DNA of 61,196 nt, the filler included. It is 5 parts of 5 records of this genome, joined end to end, with 100 filler letters (N's around TTAATTAATTAA, not from the genome) between each part and the next. Parts side by side here need not be neighbours in the genome. Positions count along the whole stretch, not along the records: positions 53,268 to 61,196 come from SRR31156797_26696; 4 more parts are not named here. The stretch is one strand, 5' to 3'. The position numbers and the translations under genes were made by a program. Numbering within the stretch: the first letter of the stretch is position 1; every line of letters starts with the position of its first letter. The notes under the pieces are model-generated. The model did not search any database, was not told the origin of the DNA, and worked only from the letters and a program-made list of their open reading frames with translations. This document shows, one piece after another, positions 26,536 through 61,196 of the stretch.

Positions 26536-26635
26536 NNNNNNNNNNNNNNNNNNNNNNNNNNNNNNNNNNNNNNNNNNNNTTAATTAATTAANNNNNNNNN
26601 NNNNNNNNNNNNNNNNNNNNNNNNNNNNNNNNNNN
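26536..26635. other. Artificial contig linker
   Basis: N-run + TTAATTAATTAA (stops in six frames) + N-run. Confidence 0.98.
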
Positions 26636-33055: not shown

Positions 33056-33155
33056 NNNNNNNNNNNNNNNNNNNNNNNNNNNNNNNNNNNNNNNNNNNNT
33101 TAATTAATTAANNNNNNNNNNNNNNNNNNNNNNNNNNNNNNNNNNNNNNNNNNNN
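33056..33155. other. Artificial contig linker
   Basis: N-run + TTAATTAATTAA + N-run. Confidence 0.98.
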
Positions 33156-44864: not shown

Positions 44865-44964
44865 NNNNNNNNNNNNNNNNNNNNNNNNNNNNNNNNNNNN
44901 NNNNNNNNTTAATTAATTAANNNNNNNNNNNNNNNNNNNNNNNNNNNNNNNNNNNNNNNNNNNN
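44865..44964. other. Artificial contig linker
   Basis: N-run + TTAATTAATTAA + N-run. Confidence 0.98.
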
Positions 44965-53167: not shown

Positions 53168-53267
53168 NNNNNNNNNNNNNNNNNNNNNNNNNNNNNNNNN
53201 NNNNNNNNNNNTTAATTAATTAANNNNNNNNNNNNNNNNNNNNNNNNNNNNNNNNNNNNNNNNNNNN
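53168..53267. other. Artificial contig linker
   Basis: N-run + TTAATTAATTAA + N-run. Confidence 0.98.
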
Positions 53268-53268
53268 C

Positions 53269-53365
53269 CCGTAGCATCGGCTTCCAGCCGATGAAGTCTG
53301 TAGCTTGGGTAACTTGCCCATGGTAAGAATGACAAAGACCCGTGGCATGGGCTTCCAGCCCATGC
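53269..53365 (+). repeat. Two GTAG/GTGG-type REP hairpins
   Basis: GTAG-CATCGGC-TTCCA-GCCGATG and GTGG-CATGGGC-TTCCA-GCCCATG. Confidence 0.75.
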
Positions 53366-53408
53366 AGAATGGATCAACGATAATTCACCCAGACAGGAGT
53401 CGCGTCGT

Positions 53409-54131
53409 ATGGCCGAATACAAACCGGAGCCATTCAACCTGACCGTTTTCTACCCGTGCTACAACGAAGAAGCCAACGTCGAAACCACGACGGAGAAGGC
53501 ACTGAAAATGTGCCGCCGCGTCTGCGATGATTTCGAAGTCATCATCGTCAACGACGGAAGCAAAGACCGCACCGGTGAAATCGCCGACTCCCTCGCAGAA
53601 AAATACCCCGAAGTCAAAGCCGTCCACAACAATCCCAACCGCGGGTACGGCGGCGCCCTCCAGCGCGGCTTTAACGAAGCGACGAAAGACTGGATCTTCT
53701 ACACCGACGGCGACGGCCAGTTCGACTTTGAAGAGATCGATCTCCTCATCCCTCTCCTGAAAGACTGGGACATCGTCAGCGCCTACCGTCTCGACCGCAA
53801 AGATCCGATCATTCGCAAACTCAATGCGTTCTGCTGGACGACCCTGGTCAACACGGTATTCCACATGCGCATCCGCGATATTGATGGTGCATTCAAAATC
53901 TTCCCGCGGGAACTGTTCACGAAAATCGAAATGTGGTCCACCGGTGCCCTCATCGACACCGAAATCCTCGCCAAAGCCACCCGCCTCGGCTACCGCATCG
54001 GCCAGGTAGGCGTTCATCACTACCCCAGAACCGCAGGCGAACAGACCGGAGCCAACATCAAAGTCATCCTCCGCGCCTTCCGCGAACTCTTCCAACTCAG
54101 AAAGCGAATTCTCAAACAAAGCAAAGAGTAG
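53409..54131 (+). CDS. Glycosyltransferase family 2 (DPM1-like)
   Basis: PCYNEE, VNDGSKDRT, NRGYGGAL, TDGDGQ. Confidence 0.93.
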   Translation: MAEYKPEPFNLTVFYPCYNEEANVETTTEKALKMCRRVCDDFEVIIVNDGSKDRTGEIADSLAEKYPEVKAVHNNPNRGYGGALQRGFNEATKDWIFYTDGDGQFDFEEIDLLIPLLKDWDIVSAYRLDRKDPIIRKLNAFCWTTLVNTVFHMRIRDIDGAFKIFPRELFTKIEMWSTGALIDTEILAKATRLGYRIGQVGVHHYPRTAGEQTGANIKVILRAFRELFQLRKRILKQSKE

Positions 54132-54148
54132 AATACGAACCCAACCGA

Positions 54149-54316
54149 CCGTGGCACTGGCTTCCAGCCAGTGCAGACCCTCTGAACCTCATACACCCAT
54201 TCAAACCTCAGACAATCAATACCTTCTCAACCCAGCGAAACGAAACAATCCCGTTAATCTTGATAATCCTGTCTACTCCTCTTCCGGATAAGCTCTGGAT
54301 ACAGCCCCCCGCCAGC
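54149..54316 (+). repeat. ~170-bp REP-headed dispersed repeat, copy 1
   Basis: Aligns without gaps over 152 bp to 55755-55906 with about 19 mismatches by hand count. Confidence 0.88.
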
Positions 54317-54368
54317 ACTTAATGCCTATTGCCTACATGACTAATGCCTTATTCCTCCCTGTAAAACC

Positions 54369-54405
54369 AAAAAAAGCCTGGAGAGTTGATCTCCCGGCTT
54401 TTTTT
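54369..54405. terminator. Bidirectional intrinsic terminator
   Basis: AAAAAAAGCCTGGAGAGTTGATCTCCCGGCTTTTTTT. Confidence 0.85.
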
Positions 54406-54780
54406 GAGGCAATTGCTCTCGGGCACCGACTCGCTGCAAGTCGGTCATACACCCTTACCACAGAGGAGTAGATAGTGCGATTCTGTCATTGAAGAGCAAC
54501 TGACCCATCCCTGCCCATTCAGATTTTCAGCCAGCCTTGTCTTGGACTCGAGCAAGAGTCCGACCGGTGCTTTCTGAACCCATCCGAGCATCTTCATGGG
54601 CACCATCCCAGCAACAAGCGGTACCCATCCGCTTACCCATCCCAGGAACGATCTTTCGAACCTGTCAGGTCCATCCCAGCAAAACCTGAGAGGTAGAAGG
54701 CAAAAACACAGTCGCTCATTCAACGCAATGAGCAAAAATAACCATCCCAGTCATCTTTAACACACTGCACACGTCACGCA
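54369..54780 (-). ncRNA. Candidate CsrB/Rsm-like small RNA with seven GGAUGG motifs
   Basis: CCATCC on + at 54505, 54580, 54603, 54625, 54637, 54671, 54742; short hairpins between them; terminator at the 3' end; no credible ORF. The 5' end is an estimate. Confidence 0.5.
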
Positions 54781-55238
54781 CCAGTACATATACACTCCGT
54801 GTGCCAGTTGAGAAAAATTCAACAGTCCCAGCGGGATTTTATGTAAACTCATAGTTTAAAATGAATTATAATGGAAAAAACAAATTATCTATTTTAACAC
54901 TTAACAAAAGGAACCCAAACAGGTGGCTCAAAACGGCCACCTGCCTCCTGAACCCGTACAGTCTGGCTCAATCCGGCCACCAGTAGATCTGTTTTATACC
55001 CCCATATCTGACCCGAAAACAAAGGTGAAAAAGAGGTCAAAAGGGCAAATCCCTGCTTCGAAAGGATTCCAAAGTGCAGCACGTCACCCTTCATACTCCG
55101 CGGTTTCGTGTCAGGGATGAGTATGCTACATCCCCTGAGACGTGTTCCCTGGATTCCCCTTTCAGCGACAGCCCCTTCCGCCTCTCCTGCCATGCTAGTC
55201 GAACAAATCGAAATGAATTACACTCCAACCAGGTGAAA

Positions 55239-55688
55239 ATGAATCAGCCCACCACGGAGAAACGCATGCTGTTTTCCCTTGATCGAACTCGCAAACGAGC
55301 CCTCCTCATCAGCTTCCTGTTGATCTCTCTCGGAATAACCGGCTGCAGCCGGATCGTCTGGCGACCGGACCTCGGCGGAGCATACGATCTAGCCGCAAGA
55401 GAAAACCGAATCGTGATTGTCGCCTACTGGTCGGCTCTCAACTCCGATTGCATCGATATGGAATCCAAGGTATTCACCTCTTCCGATGTGTATAGCACCA
55501 TGGCCGGAACAGTCCCTGTCAGGCTCGATTCAATGACCAATAAAAAATGGGCACAACAGGTAGGTGTCAGCAGGGTTCCCTCTTTTGTTGCCATTGCGCC
55601 GGACGGCAGAATCCTCCGAACCCACGAAGGCTTCCTTGATGAACCCGCATTCCGAGCATTCGTAGTCGCCTCAAAAATGGCCAAGTAA
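55239..55688 (+). CDS. Thioredoxin-fold lipoprotein lacking the full CxxC
   Basis: Lipobox ITGC, IVIVAYWSALNSDC, GVSRVPSFV (cis-Pro), EGFLD. Confidence 0.75.
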   Translation: MNQPTTEKRMLFSLDRTRKRALLISFLLISLGITGCSRIVWRPDLGGAYDLAARENRIVIVAYWSALNSDCIDMESKVFTSSDVYSTMAGTVPVRLDSMTNKKWAQQVGVSRVPSFVAIAPDGRILRTHEGFLDEPAFRAFVVASKMAK

Positions 55689-55754
55689 TCACGAGACTCT
55701 CGAACGAAAACCCGATAACTGTTTTTCTCTTCCTGTTAACAGGAAACACCACAT

Positions 55755-55925
55755 CCGTAGCACTGGCTTTCAGCCAGTGTAAACCAACTGAACCTCGCAT
55801 ATCCATTCAAACCCCAGACAATCAGTCCCTTTTCAAACCAGCGAAGCGAAACAATCCCGTTAATCTTGTGAATCCTGTCTACTCCTCTTCCGGATAAGAT
55901 CTGGATGCAGACTCCCCGCGCCAGC
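55755..55925 (+). repeat. ~170-bp REP-headed dispersed repeat, copy 2
   Basis: Homologous to 54149-54316. Confidence 0.88.
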
Positions 55926-55955
55926 CTTCTGTCTCCTCCTGGTCGCGAAGCGACC

Positions 55956-55990
55956 AAAAAAAACCAGGTCGCTCAAAGTGAGCGACCCGG
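55956..55990 (-). terminator. Terminator of the PEP-CTERM gene
   Basis: Minus strand CCGGGTCGCTCAC-TT-TGAGCGACCTGG followed by T8. Confidence 0.8.
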
Positions 55991-56023
55991 CTTAACACAC
56001 TATTGATTGTTTCGTCTCTTGCC

Positions 56024-56716
56024 TTACTTGCGACGACGAGCGAAACCGAGAGCACCAGCACCGAGGCCACCGATCAGCAGCATCGTTGAGGGTTCGGGAA
56101 CTTCGTGGATCTTGCCACCGAAGTACGAGAAGTCTCCTGGCAGAAGGTTGTAGTCAGGGCTGATTGAACTGACCAGGGTCAGACCGTAGCCTTCAGCTAC
56201 ACCGTAACCGTCGAGCACAACACCGAACTCGCCAATCTGGCTGTAGGTTGCACTCTTGACGTGCAGGTCCACTTCAAAGATCGGGGTAACCGTATCGCGA
56301 GCAACCGTGACACCGTAGTCACCGCTGGCAACGCGTTCGAACAGGCCATCGACTGCAATCACGTCGTGACTGGAGTTCGGGAAATCCTGTCCTTCAAAAT
56401 TCGAGGTTGCCCAGCCTTCACCAAGGCTGCGCATGTTTTCTACCTGCATGACCGTGTTGTCATAAGCAAAGCTGAACGTCAGTTGTTCTGCGTAGTAGTT
56501 CAGTTTGTCGATGCTGACATAAACACCGAACTGAACAGTCAGAACATCAGAGCGTTCACCTTCAAGCGTGGGAACAGCGAGTTCACCAGTATCAGGATTG
56601 ATTACACCCACTGCGTAATCAACACCCGTCAGGTCAATCGGTGTCCAGGAATCTGCGGCCATTGCCGGAGCAAAACTGAAAGCAACCAGCAAAGCACATC
56701 CAAGTAGCTTCCTCAT
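56024..56716 (-). CDS. PEP-CTERM sorting-domain protein
   Basis: Signal peptide; C-terminal VPEPSTMLLIGGLGAGALGFARRRK. Confidence 0.93.
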   Translation of the reverse strand: MRKLLGCALLVAFSFAPAMAADSWTPIDLTGVDYAVGVINPDTGELAVPTLEGERSDVLTVQFGVYVSIDKLNYYAEQLTFSFAYDNTVMQVENMRSLGEGWATSNFEGQDFPNSSHDVIAVDGLFERVASGDYGVTVARDTVTPIFEVDLHVKSATYSQIGEFGVVLDGYGVAEGYGLTLVSSISPDYNLLPGDFSYFGGKIHEVPEPSTMLLIGGLGAGALGFARRRK

Positions 56717-57513
56717 TCATATCCTCCTCATGTTAGGCGAAGTAAAGCGAATGCCTTCCTCCACAATCTGAAGAAACTGGAAATAGACATTCCCCCATCC
56801 CGTTGGATTGGCTACTGTTTCCTACGTTACATCCAGGGGGCCGGTACTTGTCTCTCACCACTGATTGCTTCCGAGTCTCAGCGTTGCTGCTACCTTTCGC
56901 TATTGTGATGTCGGCACCTCACCGACAACACCGACCGAAAGCAACAGAAATAAGAGTAACCGGTATTTCCACTAAACACTTGTTCATTCTACAAAAAGAG
57001 AGATGCTGATAGATAAGTTCTATCGATCCCAGCACACTCCCAATCCCTTCCATCCCGCCGACGTTGCCATCGACTTGGCATCTGATGCCTTACTACACAC
57101 TATACAGGCTTCACCCACCCAATCCAAGTCACTTTTACAACACGTGTTCATGATTTCCCCCTCAGAGTCCAATATCAGATCCGGAAATACACGAACTTAC
57201 ACAATCTTCATCTCCATCCATTACTCCGGAAAAACAGGTCCGATAAGAGTATCGAGATTCAATATTGAGAATGGTTTGTGTGATTGGCCCATACAGGGAA
57301 CCTGCCGATTTCTTCTTGAACAGAAAAGCATATTTAGTACAATTGTAAAAACAAATATTTCTTCAGAACGGGCAGGAATCTGAGGATGAGGACAGGGTAA
57401 GGGCCGAATATCTATCGTCAGTTGGGATCGAAGCTACATCACCGAAAATATCTCGGCTGGGTGGGATGCTACCAGCGATCCTGAGTCGATTACGTCATTT
57501 GGAAAGGGTCACC

Positions 57514-60500
57514 ATGACGACATCAGTTCATCATCTCATTCGTTCTATAGCAATAATTGTCACTTTTGTTGCTGTCACCTCGAGCAGCGCAGCGGTCTGG
57601 TATGTCTCAGACGATGCCACCCCCGGCGGTGATGGCACTTCCTGGCCATCTGCCTTCGACACCATCCAGGCCGGCATCGACGCCGCGTCCGATGGTGACA
57701 CCGTCGAGCTCGCCGATGGTACCTACACGGGAAAAGGCAACCGTGACATTTCCTTCTACGGAAAAGCGATCACCGTCCGCAGCCAGAACGGCCCCCATGC
57801 CTGCTTGATCAATTGCCAGGGAACGAAGGCCGATATGCATCGCGGTTTTCTCTTTGATTCCGGTGAAACATCGACATCCATCCTCGAAGGGATAACGATC
57901 TTTAATGGATACCATCAGACAGGCGGAGCCATCTATGCAAACAATACCTCTCCGACTATTTTGAATTGTATCTTCACGGACAATCAGGCCAGCGGACCGG
58001 GAGGTGCGATCAGTTGCGAATCGTCTTCATCTCCATATCTGAAGAATTGCGTCCTGATGAAAAACAAGGCCGAGACCGGAGGAGCCATCCATTGTTTCAA
58101 TAACTCCTCGCCGACTCTTTCGCACTGCACGATTACGTCAAACAGATGCTTCTGGAAAGGCTCCGCGATCAACAGCTGCTACAATTCTCCTCTTGAACTG
58201 ACCAACTGCATCATCTGGTCCAACCAGGAAGGCGATGTCGCAGCAATCAGTCATGATAACAACTCCGAACCTGGCATTCTGTACTCAGACATTCAGGGAG
58301 GCTGGCAGGGAGAAGGAAATATTAACGCGGATCCCCGATTCGCCATCGATGGAGCAGACCTTCACCTGGCGGCAGACTCCCCCTGCATCAACAGCGGTTC
58401 CCCTTCACAGATCACGCTCGACATCGAAAACAGTTTTCGGGCAGGCGCGATGCCTGATATGGGAGCGTACGAGTACGACCCGACTGAATCATCGATCATC
58501 GCCTTATCATCGACATATGCCAGAATCATTGACCCGTTCGGCTCCGATGAACCTTCCATCTGGCAGGTTCACCTGAAAAATCGCGCTTCAGGCACCCTGA
58601 CCTGGCACGCAACAGCTGACGCTGACTGGCTCGTGCTCGATCCGGCTTCAGGACAATCAATGGGTCAGCCTGAACCCATTACCTTCTCTGCGGATTCAAC
58701 CCAGCTGATTGCCGGCAACCACACGGCAACCATCACGATTTACGATTCAACATCATCAGCCTTGTTGAGCACCATTCATGTAGACTATTTCAAAGGGACT
58801 GAACATATAGTCAATGCCGAAGGCACAGCCGACTACCCCTCAATACAAGCCGCTATCGATGCGTCCCTTCCGGGTGACCAGGTCACCTGTCTGCCAGGTG
58901 TCTACTCCGGTACAGGCAACCGGGACATCGACTTCCAGGGAAAATCCATAACCCTCAAAGGATTAGAGGGTCCAAGTCGAACGATCATCAACTGTACTTC
59001 GTTTGATGAAATCGATCACTCCGGAATCGTGTTCATCAATAACGAAACATCCGCCTCCATCTTTGATGGCTTCACAATCACCGGAGTAACAGGCGAAGCG
59101 TCTGCCGTTCACTGCGAACAATCCAATCCAACAATCACGAACTGTATCATCCGCGAAAACAACATCAAAAATCATGGAGGAGCAAGACCAGGCCAGGCAC
59201 CGAGAAAAGGTGTAGTATACATCTCTCAGGCGTCGCCATCCGTCACAGATACGATCATCACGAAAAATCAGGCAATTTATGGAGGAGGAATCACTTCCGT
59301 TTCTTCTGCTACACCTTCTATCACGAATTGTGTGATTGTAGAGAATACTGCTGATGAGGGTGGTGGAGGAATGTCTGTTTTTAATTCTGAACCATCAGTA
59401 ACAAACTGCATTATCAGGAATCAGAGTACTTCCGAAATATACAATTCCTCCTCTGACCTAGTATTTACGTGGTGCAATATTCTGGGAGGCGAGGGTGCTT
59501 CCTGGTTTGGATCAGGTTGTATTGACACGGATCCCTTGTTTGCATACCCCGCATGTTTCTATTTGACGCCTGCTTCTCCTTGTATTGATGCAGGAACAAA
59601 TACACCGGCAGGAGGGTTGCCCGGTTATGATCTGGACGGCAATCCTCGTCCCGTTGATGGAAATGGTGACTCTATCCTGACCGCTGACATGGGTGTTTAC
59701 GAGTATGATCCGGACTATCCTGTAATTGCTGTTGAATTCCCTGAAGTTACTTTTTATTCGATCCTGGGAGATGCCAGTCCTGCAGGAAAAACAATATCCC
59801 TCAAAAACGCAGGCAGTGGAACCCTGGACTGGTCCATCACAACCGACGCCTCCTGGTTGTCTGCCTCTCCGGCAGCGGGGAGTTCCTCAGGTGAAGATAG
59901 AACGGCCACAATCAACGTCGACAGCACCGGACTTGCGGCTGGTCATCACACGGCTTCACTGAGAATATCAGATGCCCTGGCGATCAATTCACCACAGTGG
60001 CTGACGGTACATCTACTCATTGGTAGAACAATCCGCGTCCCGGAGGACTACCCCACAATCCAGCAAGCTATCGACGCGGCAACAGTCCCCGGAGAAACAG
60101 TAGAAATCGCTGACGGAACCTGGACAGGCCCGGAAAACAAAAACCTCGATTTCAAAGGAAAAGCTATCACGGTCCGAAGCGCCTCAGGAAATCCGCACCT
60201 TTGCATTATTGATTGCGAACAGGATGGCCGGGGTTTCTATTTCCACAATGGTGAAGGACCACAATCTATTGTAGATGGACTGTCTATTGTGCATGGCTTC
60301 GTTGATTTCGAAAACCAGGAAATTGTTTCTGGTGGAGGAATCTGTTGTATGGAGACAAGTCCGACTATTCAAAACTGCATCTTTCGCGATTCCAGGGTAA
60401 CATGTAACGAATATCCGGGCTGGTATGCAAGTGGTGGTGGAATTTTTTGTTACTCTTCAAGTTCTCGAATCCAGAACTGTGTTTTCGAAGGGAACAATGT

Positions 60501-61196
60501 TGGTGGCAATTATAATCGTGGAGGTGCAGGTTTTGCCTGTGATGCTTCCGATACAATACTGGAGGGCTGTGTTTTTCGAAACAACTTCACATCGAACAGA
60601 GGGGGAGCTATTTATAATTACGACTCGTACCTTACTGTCACTGACTGCTTTTTTAAAAATAATGAGTCGGGAAGTGGAGGGGCTATTTTTAATTACTTTA
60701 CGGATCTGGTGATTCAGAATGGCTGGTTCGAAAAGAACGAAAGTCAATACAGCGGCGGTGCCATAGCCAATGATAGTTGGGTAACTGCTGCGATCAAAAA
60801 TTGCGCTTTTTTAGAGAATAACTCATGGTACAGAGGTGGCGCAGTAGATAACGATAACAACTGCAGCCCGATCTTCACGAACTGTGTGTTCCGCAACAAC
60901 ACGGCAGATGAAGGCGGTGCAATGTATGACACCGATATCAGCTTCCCGGTGATTACGAACTGCATCATGTGGGGAGGATCATTACCGCAGATTGTTCACC
61001 CGTCTTCGATGCCGACCGTAACGTATTCGAATATCCAGGGAGGATCTGGCGAAAACTGGTTCCAGACAGGGTGTATTGATACCGATCCACTATTTGCGAC
61101 TGACGACAGCCTGTATCTTCTTCCCCAATCTCCATGTATCGATACGGGTACAAACACCCCGTATAACAGCGAACTCCCGGCGACAGATCTGGACGG
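57514..61196 (+). CDS. Large secreted right-handed beta-helix repeat protein with BACON-like domains; runs off the window end
   Basis: Hand translation from ATG 57514: signal peptide, then three modules beginning (T/S)IQxxIDA...GxGN(R/K)xxxFxGKxIT, with GGAI/NC repeats and DPxF...SPCI; the first two end DMGxYE. No in-frame stop seen. Confidence 0.9.
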   Translation, partial: MTTSVHHLIRSIAIIVTFVAVTSSSAAVWYVSDDATPGGDGTSWPSAFDTIQAGIDAASDGDTVELADGTYTGKGNRDISFYGKAITVRSQNGPHACLINCQGTKADMHRGFLFDSGETSTSILEGITIFNGYHQTGGAIYANNTSPTILNCIFTDNQASGPGGAISCESSSSPYLKNCVLMKNKAETGGAIHCFNNSSPTLSHCTITSNRCFWKGSAINSCYNSPLELTNCIIWSNQEGDVAAISHDNNSEPGILYSDIQGGWQGEGNINADPRFAIDGADLHLAADSPCINSGSPSQITLDIENSFRAGAMPDMGAYEYDPTESSIIALSSTYARIIDPFGSDEPSIWQVHLKNRASGTLTWHATADADWLVLDPASGQSMGQPEPITFSADSTQLIAGNHTATITIYDSTSSALLSTIHVDYFKGTEHIVNAEGTADYPSIQAAIDASLPGDQVTCLPGVYSGTGNRDIDFQGKSITLKGLEGPSRTIINCTSFDEIDHSGIVFINNETSASIFDGFTITGVTGEASAVHCEQSNPTITNCIIRENNIKNHGGARPGQAPRKGVVYISQASPSVTDTIITKNQAIYGGGITSVSSATPSITNCVIVENTADEGGGGMSVFNSEPSVTNCIIRNQSTSEIYNSSSDLVFTWCNILGGEGASWFGSGCIDTDPLFAYPACFYLTPASPCIDAGTNTPAGGLPGYDLDGNPRPVDGNGDSILTADMGVYEYDPDYPVIAVEFPEVTFYSILGDASPAGKTISLKNAGSGTLDWSITTDASWLSASPAAGSSSGEDRTATINVDSTGLAAGHHTASLRISDALAINSPQWLTVHLLIGRTIRVPEDYPTIQQAIDAATVPGETVEIADGTWTGPENKNLDFKGKAITVRSASGNPHLCIIDCEQDGRGFYFHNGEGPQSIVDGLSIVHGFVDFENQEIVSGGGICCMETSPTIQNCIFRDSRVTCNEYPGWYASGGGIFCYSSSSRIQNCVFEGNNVGGNYNRGGAGFACDASDTILEGCVFRNNFTSNRGGAIYNYDSYLTVTDCFFKNNESGSGGAIFNYFTDLVIQNGWFEKNESQYSGGAIANDSWVTAAIKNCAFLENNSWYRGGAVDNDNNCSPIFTNCVFRNNTADEGGAMYDTDISFPVITNCIMWGGSLPQIVHPSSMPTVTYSNIQGGSGENWFQTGCIDTDPLFATDDSLYLLPQSPCIDTGTNTPYNSELPATDLD

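Follow-up and report, generated by a model that had tools for sequence, protein, structure and literature searches.

The window, by which we mean the whole stretch of DNA analysed (61,196 nt), is a concatenation of five contigs, and each linker between them comprises 44 N, a stop-codon spacer of 12 bases and another 44 N. The usable context for the GGATGG array described here is its last segment only, 53268-61196, which has a G+C content of 50%. In this segment the array lies on the minus strand between two plus-strand genes, one coding for a family-2 glycosyltransferase and the other, more weakly recognized, for a thioredoxin-like lipoprotein, and further along there follow a PEP-CTERM protein gene and the beginning of a giant, adhesin-like protein with BACON and PMP repeats (Table 1). 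The relatives of the glycosyltransferase are nearly all from metagenome-assembled genomes of the Planctomycetota, class Phycisphaerae, with best identities of 79-81%, and by this sequence affiliation the host of the contig is an uncultured Phycisphaerae bacterium. The initial annotation, which had predicted a non-proteobacterial lineage encoding PEP-CTERM proteins, was right in this respect. The genomes that come nearest by the thioredoxin-like protein (G340, G083 and G153) are just 46-55% identical in that protein. The array region is also flanked by a 162-nt repeat whose two copies are 86% alike and both come after the stop of a plus-strand gene; loose contig ends at both copies point to further copies elsewhere, and the repeat has no match in five related genomes.

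Table 1. Features in the last segment of the window, in window coordinates (plus-strand numbering)
Feature	Coordinates	Strand	Remarks
Family-2 glycosyltransferase gene	53409-54131	+	neighbour of the array
162-nt repeat, copy 1	54149..54310	+
162-nt repeat, copy 2	55755-55916
Candidate non-coding RNA unit, ~0.4 kb	54369..54790	-	3' end set by the U-run
Intrinsic terminator	54369..54398	-	G+C-rich hairpin 54376-54398, seven U 54369-54375; after the array
96-aa ORF	54445..54735	-	TTG start; judged spurious
GGATGG hexamers (seven)	54505-54510, 54580-85, 54603-08, 54625-30, 54637-42, 54671-76, 54742-47	-
Internal hairpin with U-rich run	54701..54735	-	from terminator scan; stem 54735-54712, 9 pairs
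Sigma-54-like site CTGGCACACGGAGTGTA	54791..54807	-	TGGCAC at -24, GT not GC at -12
TATAAT hexamer, alternative -10	54865..54870	-	within A+T-rich stretch ~54830-54915, directly 5' of the array
Second terminator-like hairpin	54946-54917	-	from terminator scan; upstream of the array
Thioredoxin-like lipoprotein gene (weak)	55239-55688	+	most likely start at 55239; neighbour of the array
PEP-CTERM protein gene	56024-56716	-	same segment as the array
Lone GGGAUGG	56795..56800	-	~80 nt 5' of the PEP-CTERM gene, which starts at 56716
Giant protein, BACON + PMP repeats (adhesin-like)	from 57466	+	same segment as the array

The seven minus-strand GGATGG hexamers that first drew attention to this region do lie within 243 nt, from 54505 to 54747, and the plus strand of the array region has none. 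Across the whole window the hexamer occurs 52 times on both strands together, against 38.8 expected, and the excess is a local one: seven copies fall in 243 nt while the next-best 250-nt window holds two, none of 300 block shuffles gave more than three, and the cluster has a Poisson estimate of about 1e-11. Four of the hexamers extend to CTGGGATGG, the sole four copies of that sequence in the 61-kb window, and two have UUGCUGGGAUGG in common; both extensions had been noted in the initial annotation. The extended consensus of all seven copies is about 13 nt long, guUgCUGGGAUGGgU, and the conserved span reaches from five bases before GGAUGG to two after it, with information content outside at background. 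The edges of the motif are sharp and the spacers between copies are unrelated to one another, and this restriction of conservation to about 13 nt between unrelated spacers suggests selection on the motif rather than recent duplication. Start-to-start spacings are 71, 34, 12, 22, 23, and 75 nt. Tandem Repeats Finder detected no tandem periodicity in the array, and helical phasing of the motifs was not significant (Rayleigh test, P about 0.7). The minus strand of 54369-54810 counts 7 GGAUGG and 11 GGA, and the array is single-copy within the window.

Judged from its sequence, the stretch 54369-54790 does not look coding, in agreement with the earlier view that these roughly 400 nt hold no credible ORF. 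A 96-aa ORF on the minus strand has four motifs in one common frame, where they read G-W-V, but the motifs as a whole are spread over three reading frames, no Shine-Dalgarno sequence is visible before the TTG start, and the ORF contains no Pfam family and has no homologue among the proteins of 52-168 aa in a large collection. When the region was shuffled 2000 times, an ORF of this length turned up in 132 cases (6.6%). In a near-identical variant of the region from sequencing run X2, considered below, one base is missing at 54554, and the reading frame is altered after codon 60. We therefore judge this ORF to be spurious.

What can be delimited instead is a candidate non-coding RNA unit whose 3' end would be set by the U-run of an intrinsic terminator. 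The initial annotation had the array end in such a terminator, and both the G+C-rich hairpin and the run of seven U are present, but the terminator scan calls the site on both strands, and a bidirectional terminator could equally end the transcripts of the upstream glycosyltransferase gene. Two other minus-strand hairpins came out of the scan. One of them, terminator-like, is internal, sits directly after the first motif and persists in every fold; it might halt transcription early or be a purely structural element. The other is located upstream of the array. At the other end of the unit, the 5' end would fall near 54785 with the TGGCAC site as promoter and near 54858 with the TATAAT hexamer in that role.

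The promoter-like elements differ in kind. The sigma-54 consensus has a GG at -24 that is separated by ten bases from a GC at -12. A sigma-54-like site with an imperfect -12 element had been proposed for the unit and is indeed present, one base away from where it had been placed, but it reads GG-N10-GT, with the C of the -12 element replaced by T, which leaves it short of that consensus, and its frequency is that of chance (3 TGGCAC-N6-TGY sites in the window vs 1.33 expected). A sigma-54 DNA-binding domain is present in all five related genomes searched, and as a promoter of the unit we regard the site as a weak lead. The alternative is the TATAAT hexamer in the A+T-rich stretch 5' of the array, upstream of which no good -35 element was found; a sigma-70 promoter scan returned 0 sites. 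No UvrY/GacA-type box was found within 1 kb of the unit.

The minus-strand unit is predicted to fold with -165.5 kcal/mol, a z-score of -4.72 that becomes -3.79 when the terminator is left out. The plus strand folds better than its shuffles too (z -3.83), and since both strands beat shuffles, structure does not single out one of them. The small TCAGGT/ACCTGA hairpin that had been noticed around one motif can be traced to arms at 54688-54683 and 54670-54665, and one motif can occupy the 13-nt loop of a 6-bp hairpin. The global fold leaves GGA clearly unpaired in two of the seven motifs (54747 and 54642) and half open in a third (54630), local folds (span 35-50) leave it open at the same two positions and partly open in three more, and most motifs are partly paired in global and local folds. 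Forcing all seven GGA open puts two of them in hairpin loops and costs 13.5 kcal/mol, compared with 17.2 +/- 4.6 in shuffles with the motifs fixed; 33 of 150 shuffles expose GGA as cheaply as the real unit, and the predicted display of these sites is thus no better than in the controls. Every fold also contains a hairpin of the form CUAC-loop-GUGG whose loop is UCCUCU. Pyrimidine-rich CCUC stretches are found around 54685-54700 and around 54458-54475, and for one of them the prediction is a position in a hexaloop.

Traces of the unit occur in X2, a run from another study whose library is labelled metatranscriptomic but flagged 'RNA? (probably DNA)', and whose contigs cannot reveal ends, strand or level. 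Over the 3.6 kb tested, this run gave three records only: a whole 335-nt contig inside the unit (54408-54742), a 151-nt contig (56650-56800) that spans the leader of the PEP-CTERM gene together with the gene's 5' end, and 36 nt of the flanking repeat. The two other runs listed were X1, the probable source, and X3, from the same sample, which contributed no record. By our own estimate, a random 335-nt piece would lie wholly within the 442-nt unit about 3% of the time. Such a pattern is what would be expected if the unit were among the few well-expressed parts of the stretch, and it hints in that direction; for expression of the unit as such, the 335-nt contig is a weak hint. Three differences are listed between the X2 variant and the unit, namely a stem pair that goes from A-U to G-U, a substitution or other change within a U-run, and the loss of one base from a hairpin loop, and by our reading of the folds all three would be neutral for the predicted structure.

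If the unit is an RNA gene, it belongs to no family that we could name. A comparison of the whole window with Rfam, a check that had been proposed for the CsrB-like reading, gave 0 matches at gathering score, and when matches with E up to 10 were allowed on 54200-55000, seven weak ones appeared, none of them to a Csr or Rsm family; the best was Thr_leader, at 27.5 bits vs a cut-off of 55, on the terminator. Among 80 syntenic glycosyltransferase loci, 79 are without a GGATGG cluster and one (L032) has four motifs within 300 nt, and blastn found DNA similarity to the RNA region at none of the 80. DNA searches with the RNA in five plus five related genomes gave nothing meaningful (best E 0.07), and none of 279 genomes of the order matches the RNA region by DNA. 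A 4.1-kb query matches 243 of these 279 genomes, with all of the matches listed falling within the glycosyltransferase gene and reaching 76% identity at most. A metagenome scan with the thioredoxin-like protein likewise brought up no relative. With no close relative of the host in the genome collection, as the identities of the thioredoxin-like protein indicate, the absence of RNA homologues says little.

A metagenome scan by motif pattern found at least 113 loci; none of those resembled the RNA, and most were periodic, coding or palindromic repeats of unrelated organisms. Within the Phycisphaerae, 86 of 301 genomes matched the pattern, and 16 of the 30 loci fetched had at least four motifs, 15 of these 16 inside a long open frame and one (L088) not. 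A scan of the family for pairs of TGGGATGG matched 24 of 101 genomes, mostly with single pairs, the exceptions being G002 with 10 matches and G519 with five at a spacing of 21 nt. In the genomes closest by the thioredoxin-like gene, G340, G083, and G153, no cluster like the array was found; RGGATG triplets matched there 17 times, and all four matches looked at were coding. G002, a member of the same family, carries short-period GGGATGG arrays (36 pattern matches vs 0 in a control). We considered these as an analogue of the array and rejected them as a different thing. The G002 genome has a high G+C content, and some of its arrays may be coding.

CsrA is reported as widespread in Planctomycetota (PMC13443453), and it is present in all ten related Phycisphaerae genomes that we compared, which belong to one family (G001-G005, G069, G083, G153, G202, and G340); half of these genomes carry it in two or three copies. 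FliW is found in nine of them and is missing just in G001. There are two CsrA types, one in a row of fliW, csrA and flagellin genes, confirmed by Pfam in G083, and one that stands alone without FliW beside it. No csrA was found in the 61-kb window, and that the host organism itself has CsrA we infer from these relatives. In G083, G340, and G153 two hairpins are predicted between csrA and flagellin; the first carries ACAAGGAUG in a loop of 13 nt, and the second displays the Shine-Dalgarno GGA in a hexaloop. A SELEX consensus for CsrA is given in PMC7652899 as RUACARGGAUGU, with ACA invariant; compared with this consensus, the array has GGAUG in all seven motifs and RGGAUG in five of seven, it lacks the ACA, and it has G in place of the final U. 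Taken together, the GGAUG-loop sites of the flagellin leaders and the SELEX core indicate that the CsrA of this family most likely reads GGAUG, which is the invariant core of the array motif, in loops.

The same review (PMC7652899) describes a two-site, CsrA-repressed flagellin leader in Bacillus subtilis. It ties the Csr-family sRNAs to Gammaproteobacteria and presents FliW as the antagonist in other organisms, and it states that fliW is anti-correlated with BarA-UvrY, the two-component systems behind the Csr sRNAs. Among the titles and abstracts on CsrA in Planctomycetes and on CsrA with FliW and sponge RNAs that we surveyed, none described a CsrA-binding small RNA in Planctomycetota. At the locus itself there is one further site of the same kind, the lone GGGAUGG in the leader of the PEP-CTERM gene, which occurs together with a GGA-rich Shine-Dalgarno sequence, GAGGAGGA; speculatively, this leader could be of the target type for the regulator that the RNA would bind.

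Taking the readings of the region as an RNA together, we think it probable that a discrete orphan non-coding RNA is encoded here. Our preferred model is a lineage-restricted, independent gene for a non-coding RNA, about 0.4 kb long, that is read on the minus strand in the interval from the glycosyltransferase to the thioredoxin-like lipoprotein gene, and in which the seven CUGGGAUGG-type sites would act as decoy binding sites for the dimeric regulator CsrA. CsrB and RsmZ work by holding CsrA dimers and so relieving repression. If the RNA described here were to hold several CsrA dimers in this way, CsrA repression of mRNAs would be relieved, and bridging by a CsrA dimer would suit the motif spacings of 12-34 nt. 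The transcription of the unit, its promoter and its binding of CsrA are all things that we infer.

How much of the CsrB-like sponge proposed in the initial annotation remains depends on which of its features are considered. The unit is non-coding, rich in motifs on one strand, followed by a terminator and built on a GGAUG core, and with seven GGAUGG in a single non-coding unit it has the several GGA sites expected of a CsrA-sequestering sRNA; a match in Rfam, a homologue, and a preferential exposure of the sites are what the comparison did not supply. We offer the decoy role tentatively, as a reading that falls somewhat short of an even chance. The bolder proposition, that this is the first RNA antagonist of CsrA outside Proteobacteria, a decoy for an orphan CsrA with an origin independent of CsrB/RsmZ, strikes us as unlikely. 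On that reading, planctomycetes of this family would have kept the FliW-CsrA-flagellin circuit as an ancestral trait, the decoy would serve the second CsrA that stands alone in half of the genomes compared, and the RNA may be tied to cell-surface genes such as its glycosyltransferase, PEP-CTERM, and giant adhesin-like neighbours.

If the region does encode a small RNA, that RNA need not act through CsrA. Some other RNA-binding protein could recognize the 13-nt motif, or the RNA could work by base pairing via its CCUC stretches, and the evidence for a discrete transcript, which comes from the terminator and the X2 contig, applies equally to these possibilities. The length of the conserved motif, about 13 nt where CsrA needs a GGA core, speaks for them, as do its lack of the SELEX ACA, the failure of the GGA triplets to be preferentially exposed, and the UCCUCU-loop hairpin that recurs in every fold. 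We found no candidate protein or target for such an RNA, however, and GGAUG matches the CsrA-type site of the flagellin leaders in the relatives. For the base-pairing version in particular, seven G-rich repeats are, to our knowledge, not the usual design for a seed. We consider an RNA of this sort an alternative to the CsrA decoy, but an unlikely one.

A different possibility is that the array has no function as RNA. It would then be either what is left, in decay, of an old mobile fragment or short tandem repeat, or a series of direct repeats in the DNA to which a protein binds. This would fit with a single locus whose conservation is detectable nowhere, with the dispersed repeats that flank the region, with the good folding of both strands, and with the GGGATGG arrays of G002, which imply that such repeats arise in the family. 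Against it stand the loss of any tandem periodicity, the sharp boundaries of the motif between spacers that are not related to each other, and the lack of helical phasing. The site would also be a poor place for a DNA operator, being about 490 bp from the nearest downstream plus-strand start and with no minus-strand gene after it. The strict orientation of the motifs on one strand, followed by a terminator, and the X2 contig weigh on the same side, and we rate the absence of an RNA function as rather improbable.

The array might instead be a cis-acting untranslated part of a neighbouring message, as a long antisense transcript or a 3' extension. In its favour, the terminator serves the plus strand too, and a second terminator-like hairpin lies upstream on the minus strand, but this hairpin would itself stop transcripts from further up. 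Also against it, there is no minus-strand gene up- or downstream within the contig segment, and the array is immediately preceded on its 5' side by an A+T-rich stretch that contains promoter-like elements. This explanation has little chance of being correct, and a small protein with GWV repeats, encoded by the 96-aa ORF or by a shorter ATG-started part of it, has hardly any, the 96 open codons and the four in-frame motifs being set against the frame, homology, shuffling, and variant evidence given above.

Should the decoy model hold, RNA sponges for CsrA would have evolved more than once, in this case in a planctomycete that bears FliW, and the locus would open a way into the post-transcriptional control of a phylum in which hardly any small RNAs are characterised. 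Should the RNA be no CsrA decoy, the array would still make a clean candidate for a novel RNA motif recognized by a protein. The weight of either statement is limited, since there is one locus in one uncultured genome.

Among known systems, the candidate RNA most resembles CsrB and CsrC of Escherichia coli and RsmX, RsmY, and RsmZ of Pseudomonas, which are likewise non-coding, a few hundred nt long and furnished with many GGA motifs, and like them it is followed by a Rho-independent terminator; its GGAUG core is that of the SELEX consensus. It differs from them in being found in Planctomycetota and not in Gammaproteobacteria, and in having neither an Rfam match nor a UvrY/GacA-type box. Its motif is longer than theirs and without ACA, and most of its GGA triplets are predicted outside hairpin loops, unlike the sites of CsrB and RsmZ. 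A further difference is that relatives of its host carry FliW.

The other point of comparison is with the flagellin leaders of organisms that use FliW. The fliW-csrA-flagellin arrangement in the relatives, with its two GGA-loop hairpins, is like hag of Bacillus subtilis and flaA of Campylobacter jejuni, the latter as described in PMC4894983. The unit itself departs from this design in that it leads no gene, has seven sites and not two, and has no flagellar genes near it. What the candidate RNA and the flagellin leaders of the relatives have in common is the GGAUG core.

The interval between the orphan csrA, the stand-alone type that lacks an adjacent FliW gene, and a tRNA gene carries a conserved promoter-like pair, TTGACTTC ... 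CTAAGCTACC, in four related Phycisphaerae genomes of one family. On the 3' side of this pair lie about 200 conserved nt, beginning with GGGGCAGUCGUCUAGG, which are not GGA-rich, gave no match in an Rfam search, and are a candidate for an unannotated RNA gene.

A search for three closely spaced GGATGG motifs returned 36 matches in G002, a high-G+C member of the same family, versus 0 in the control. These are for the most part GGGATGG arrays with a period of 10-14 nt, several of which are located at contig ends or, on the sense strand, 60-120 nt 5' of Shine-Dalgarno sequences. Possible readings are protein-coding repeats rich in Gly and Trp, DNA prone to form G-quadruplexes, and regulatory RNA.

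Features in the window and in related genomes.
Feature	Position or locus	Source or strand	Remark
Terminator-like hairpin	54917-54946	window, minus	11 bp, then U-rich run
Joins between contigs	26536-26635, 33056-33155, 44865-44964, 53168-53267	window	
162-nt repeat	54149-54310 and 55755-55916	window	fragments at 53268-53391
Gene-free gap, 750 nt	56717-57465	window	upstream of PEP-CTERM gene
GGATGG-rich loci	L139-L156	G002	
Candidate RNA gene	L312, L313, L314, L115	G153, G083, G340, G005	between orphan csrA and tRNA gene
csrA-flagellin spacer	L315, L316, L317	G083, G340, G153	two-hairpin CsrA-type leader

Within the window, the gap upstream of the PEP-CTERM gene contains 3 minus-strand GGATGG motifs (56795, 57050, and 57214) and a strong Shine-Dalgarno sequence, GAGGAGGA; positions 56650-56800 are spanned by a contig of X2, a run labelled metatranscriptomic and flagged as probably DNA. 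Immediately 5' of the A+T-rich stretch that may hold the promoter of the window's candidate GGAUGG-bearing RNA lies the terminator-like hairpin.

The two copies of the 162-nt repeat, 86% identical to each other, follow the stop codons of two plus-strand genes and include a CACTGGCT/AGCCAGTG hairpin. The run contigs have loose ends at the repeat, which point to many copies in the genome. None of the 5 related genomes searched contained a match. The window consists of contigs strung together, each join being TTAATTAATTAA flanked by 44 N on either side. The G+C content of segment 44965-53167 is 62%, versus 46-50% in the rest of the window, and this segment may be a binning contaminant from another organism.

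In three of the relatives, the csrA stop directly abuts TTGGCACA, the first bases of the csrA-flagellin spacer. The word TGGCACACG is shared by this spacer and a site upstream of the window's RNA, which may be due to chance. In these Phycisphaerae genomes the flagellin gene is preceded by a textbook two-hairpin leader of the CsrA type.
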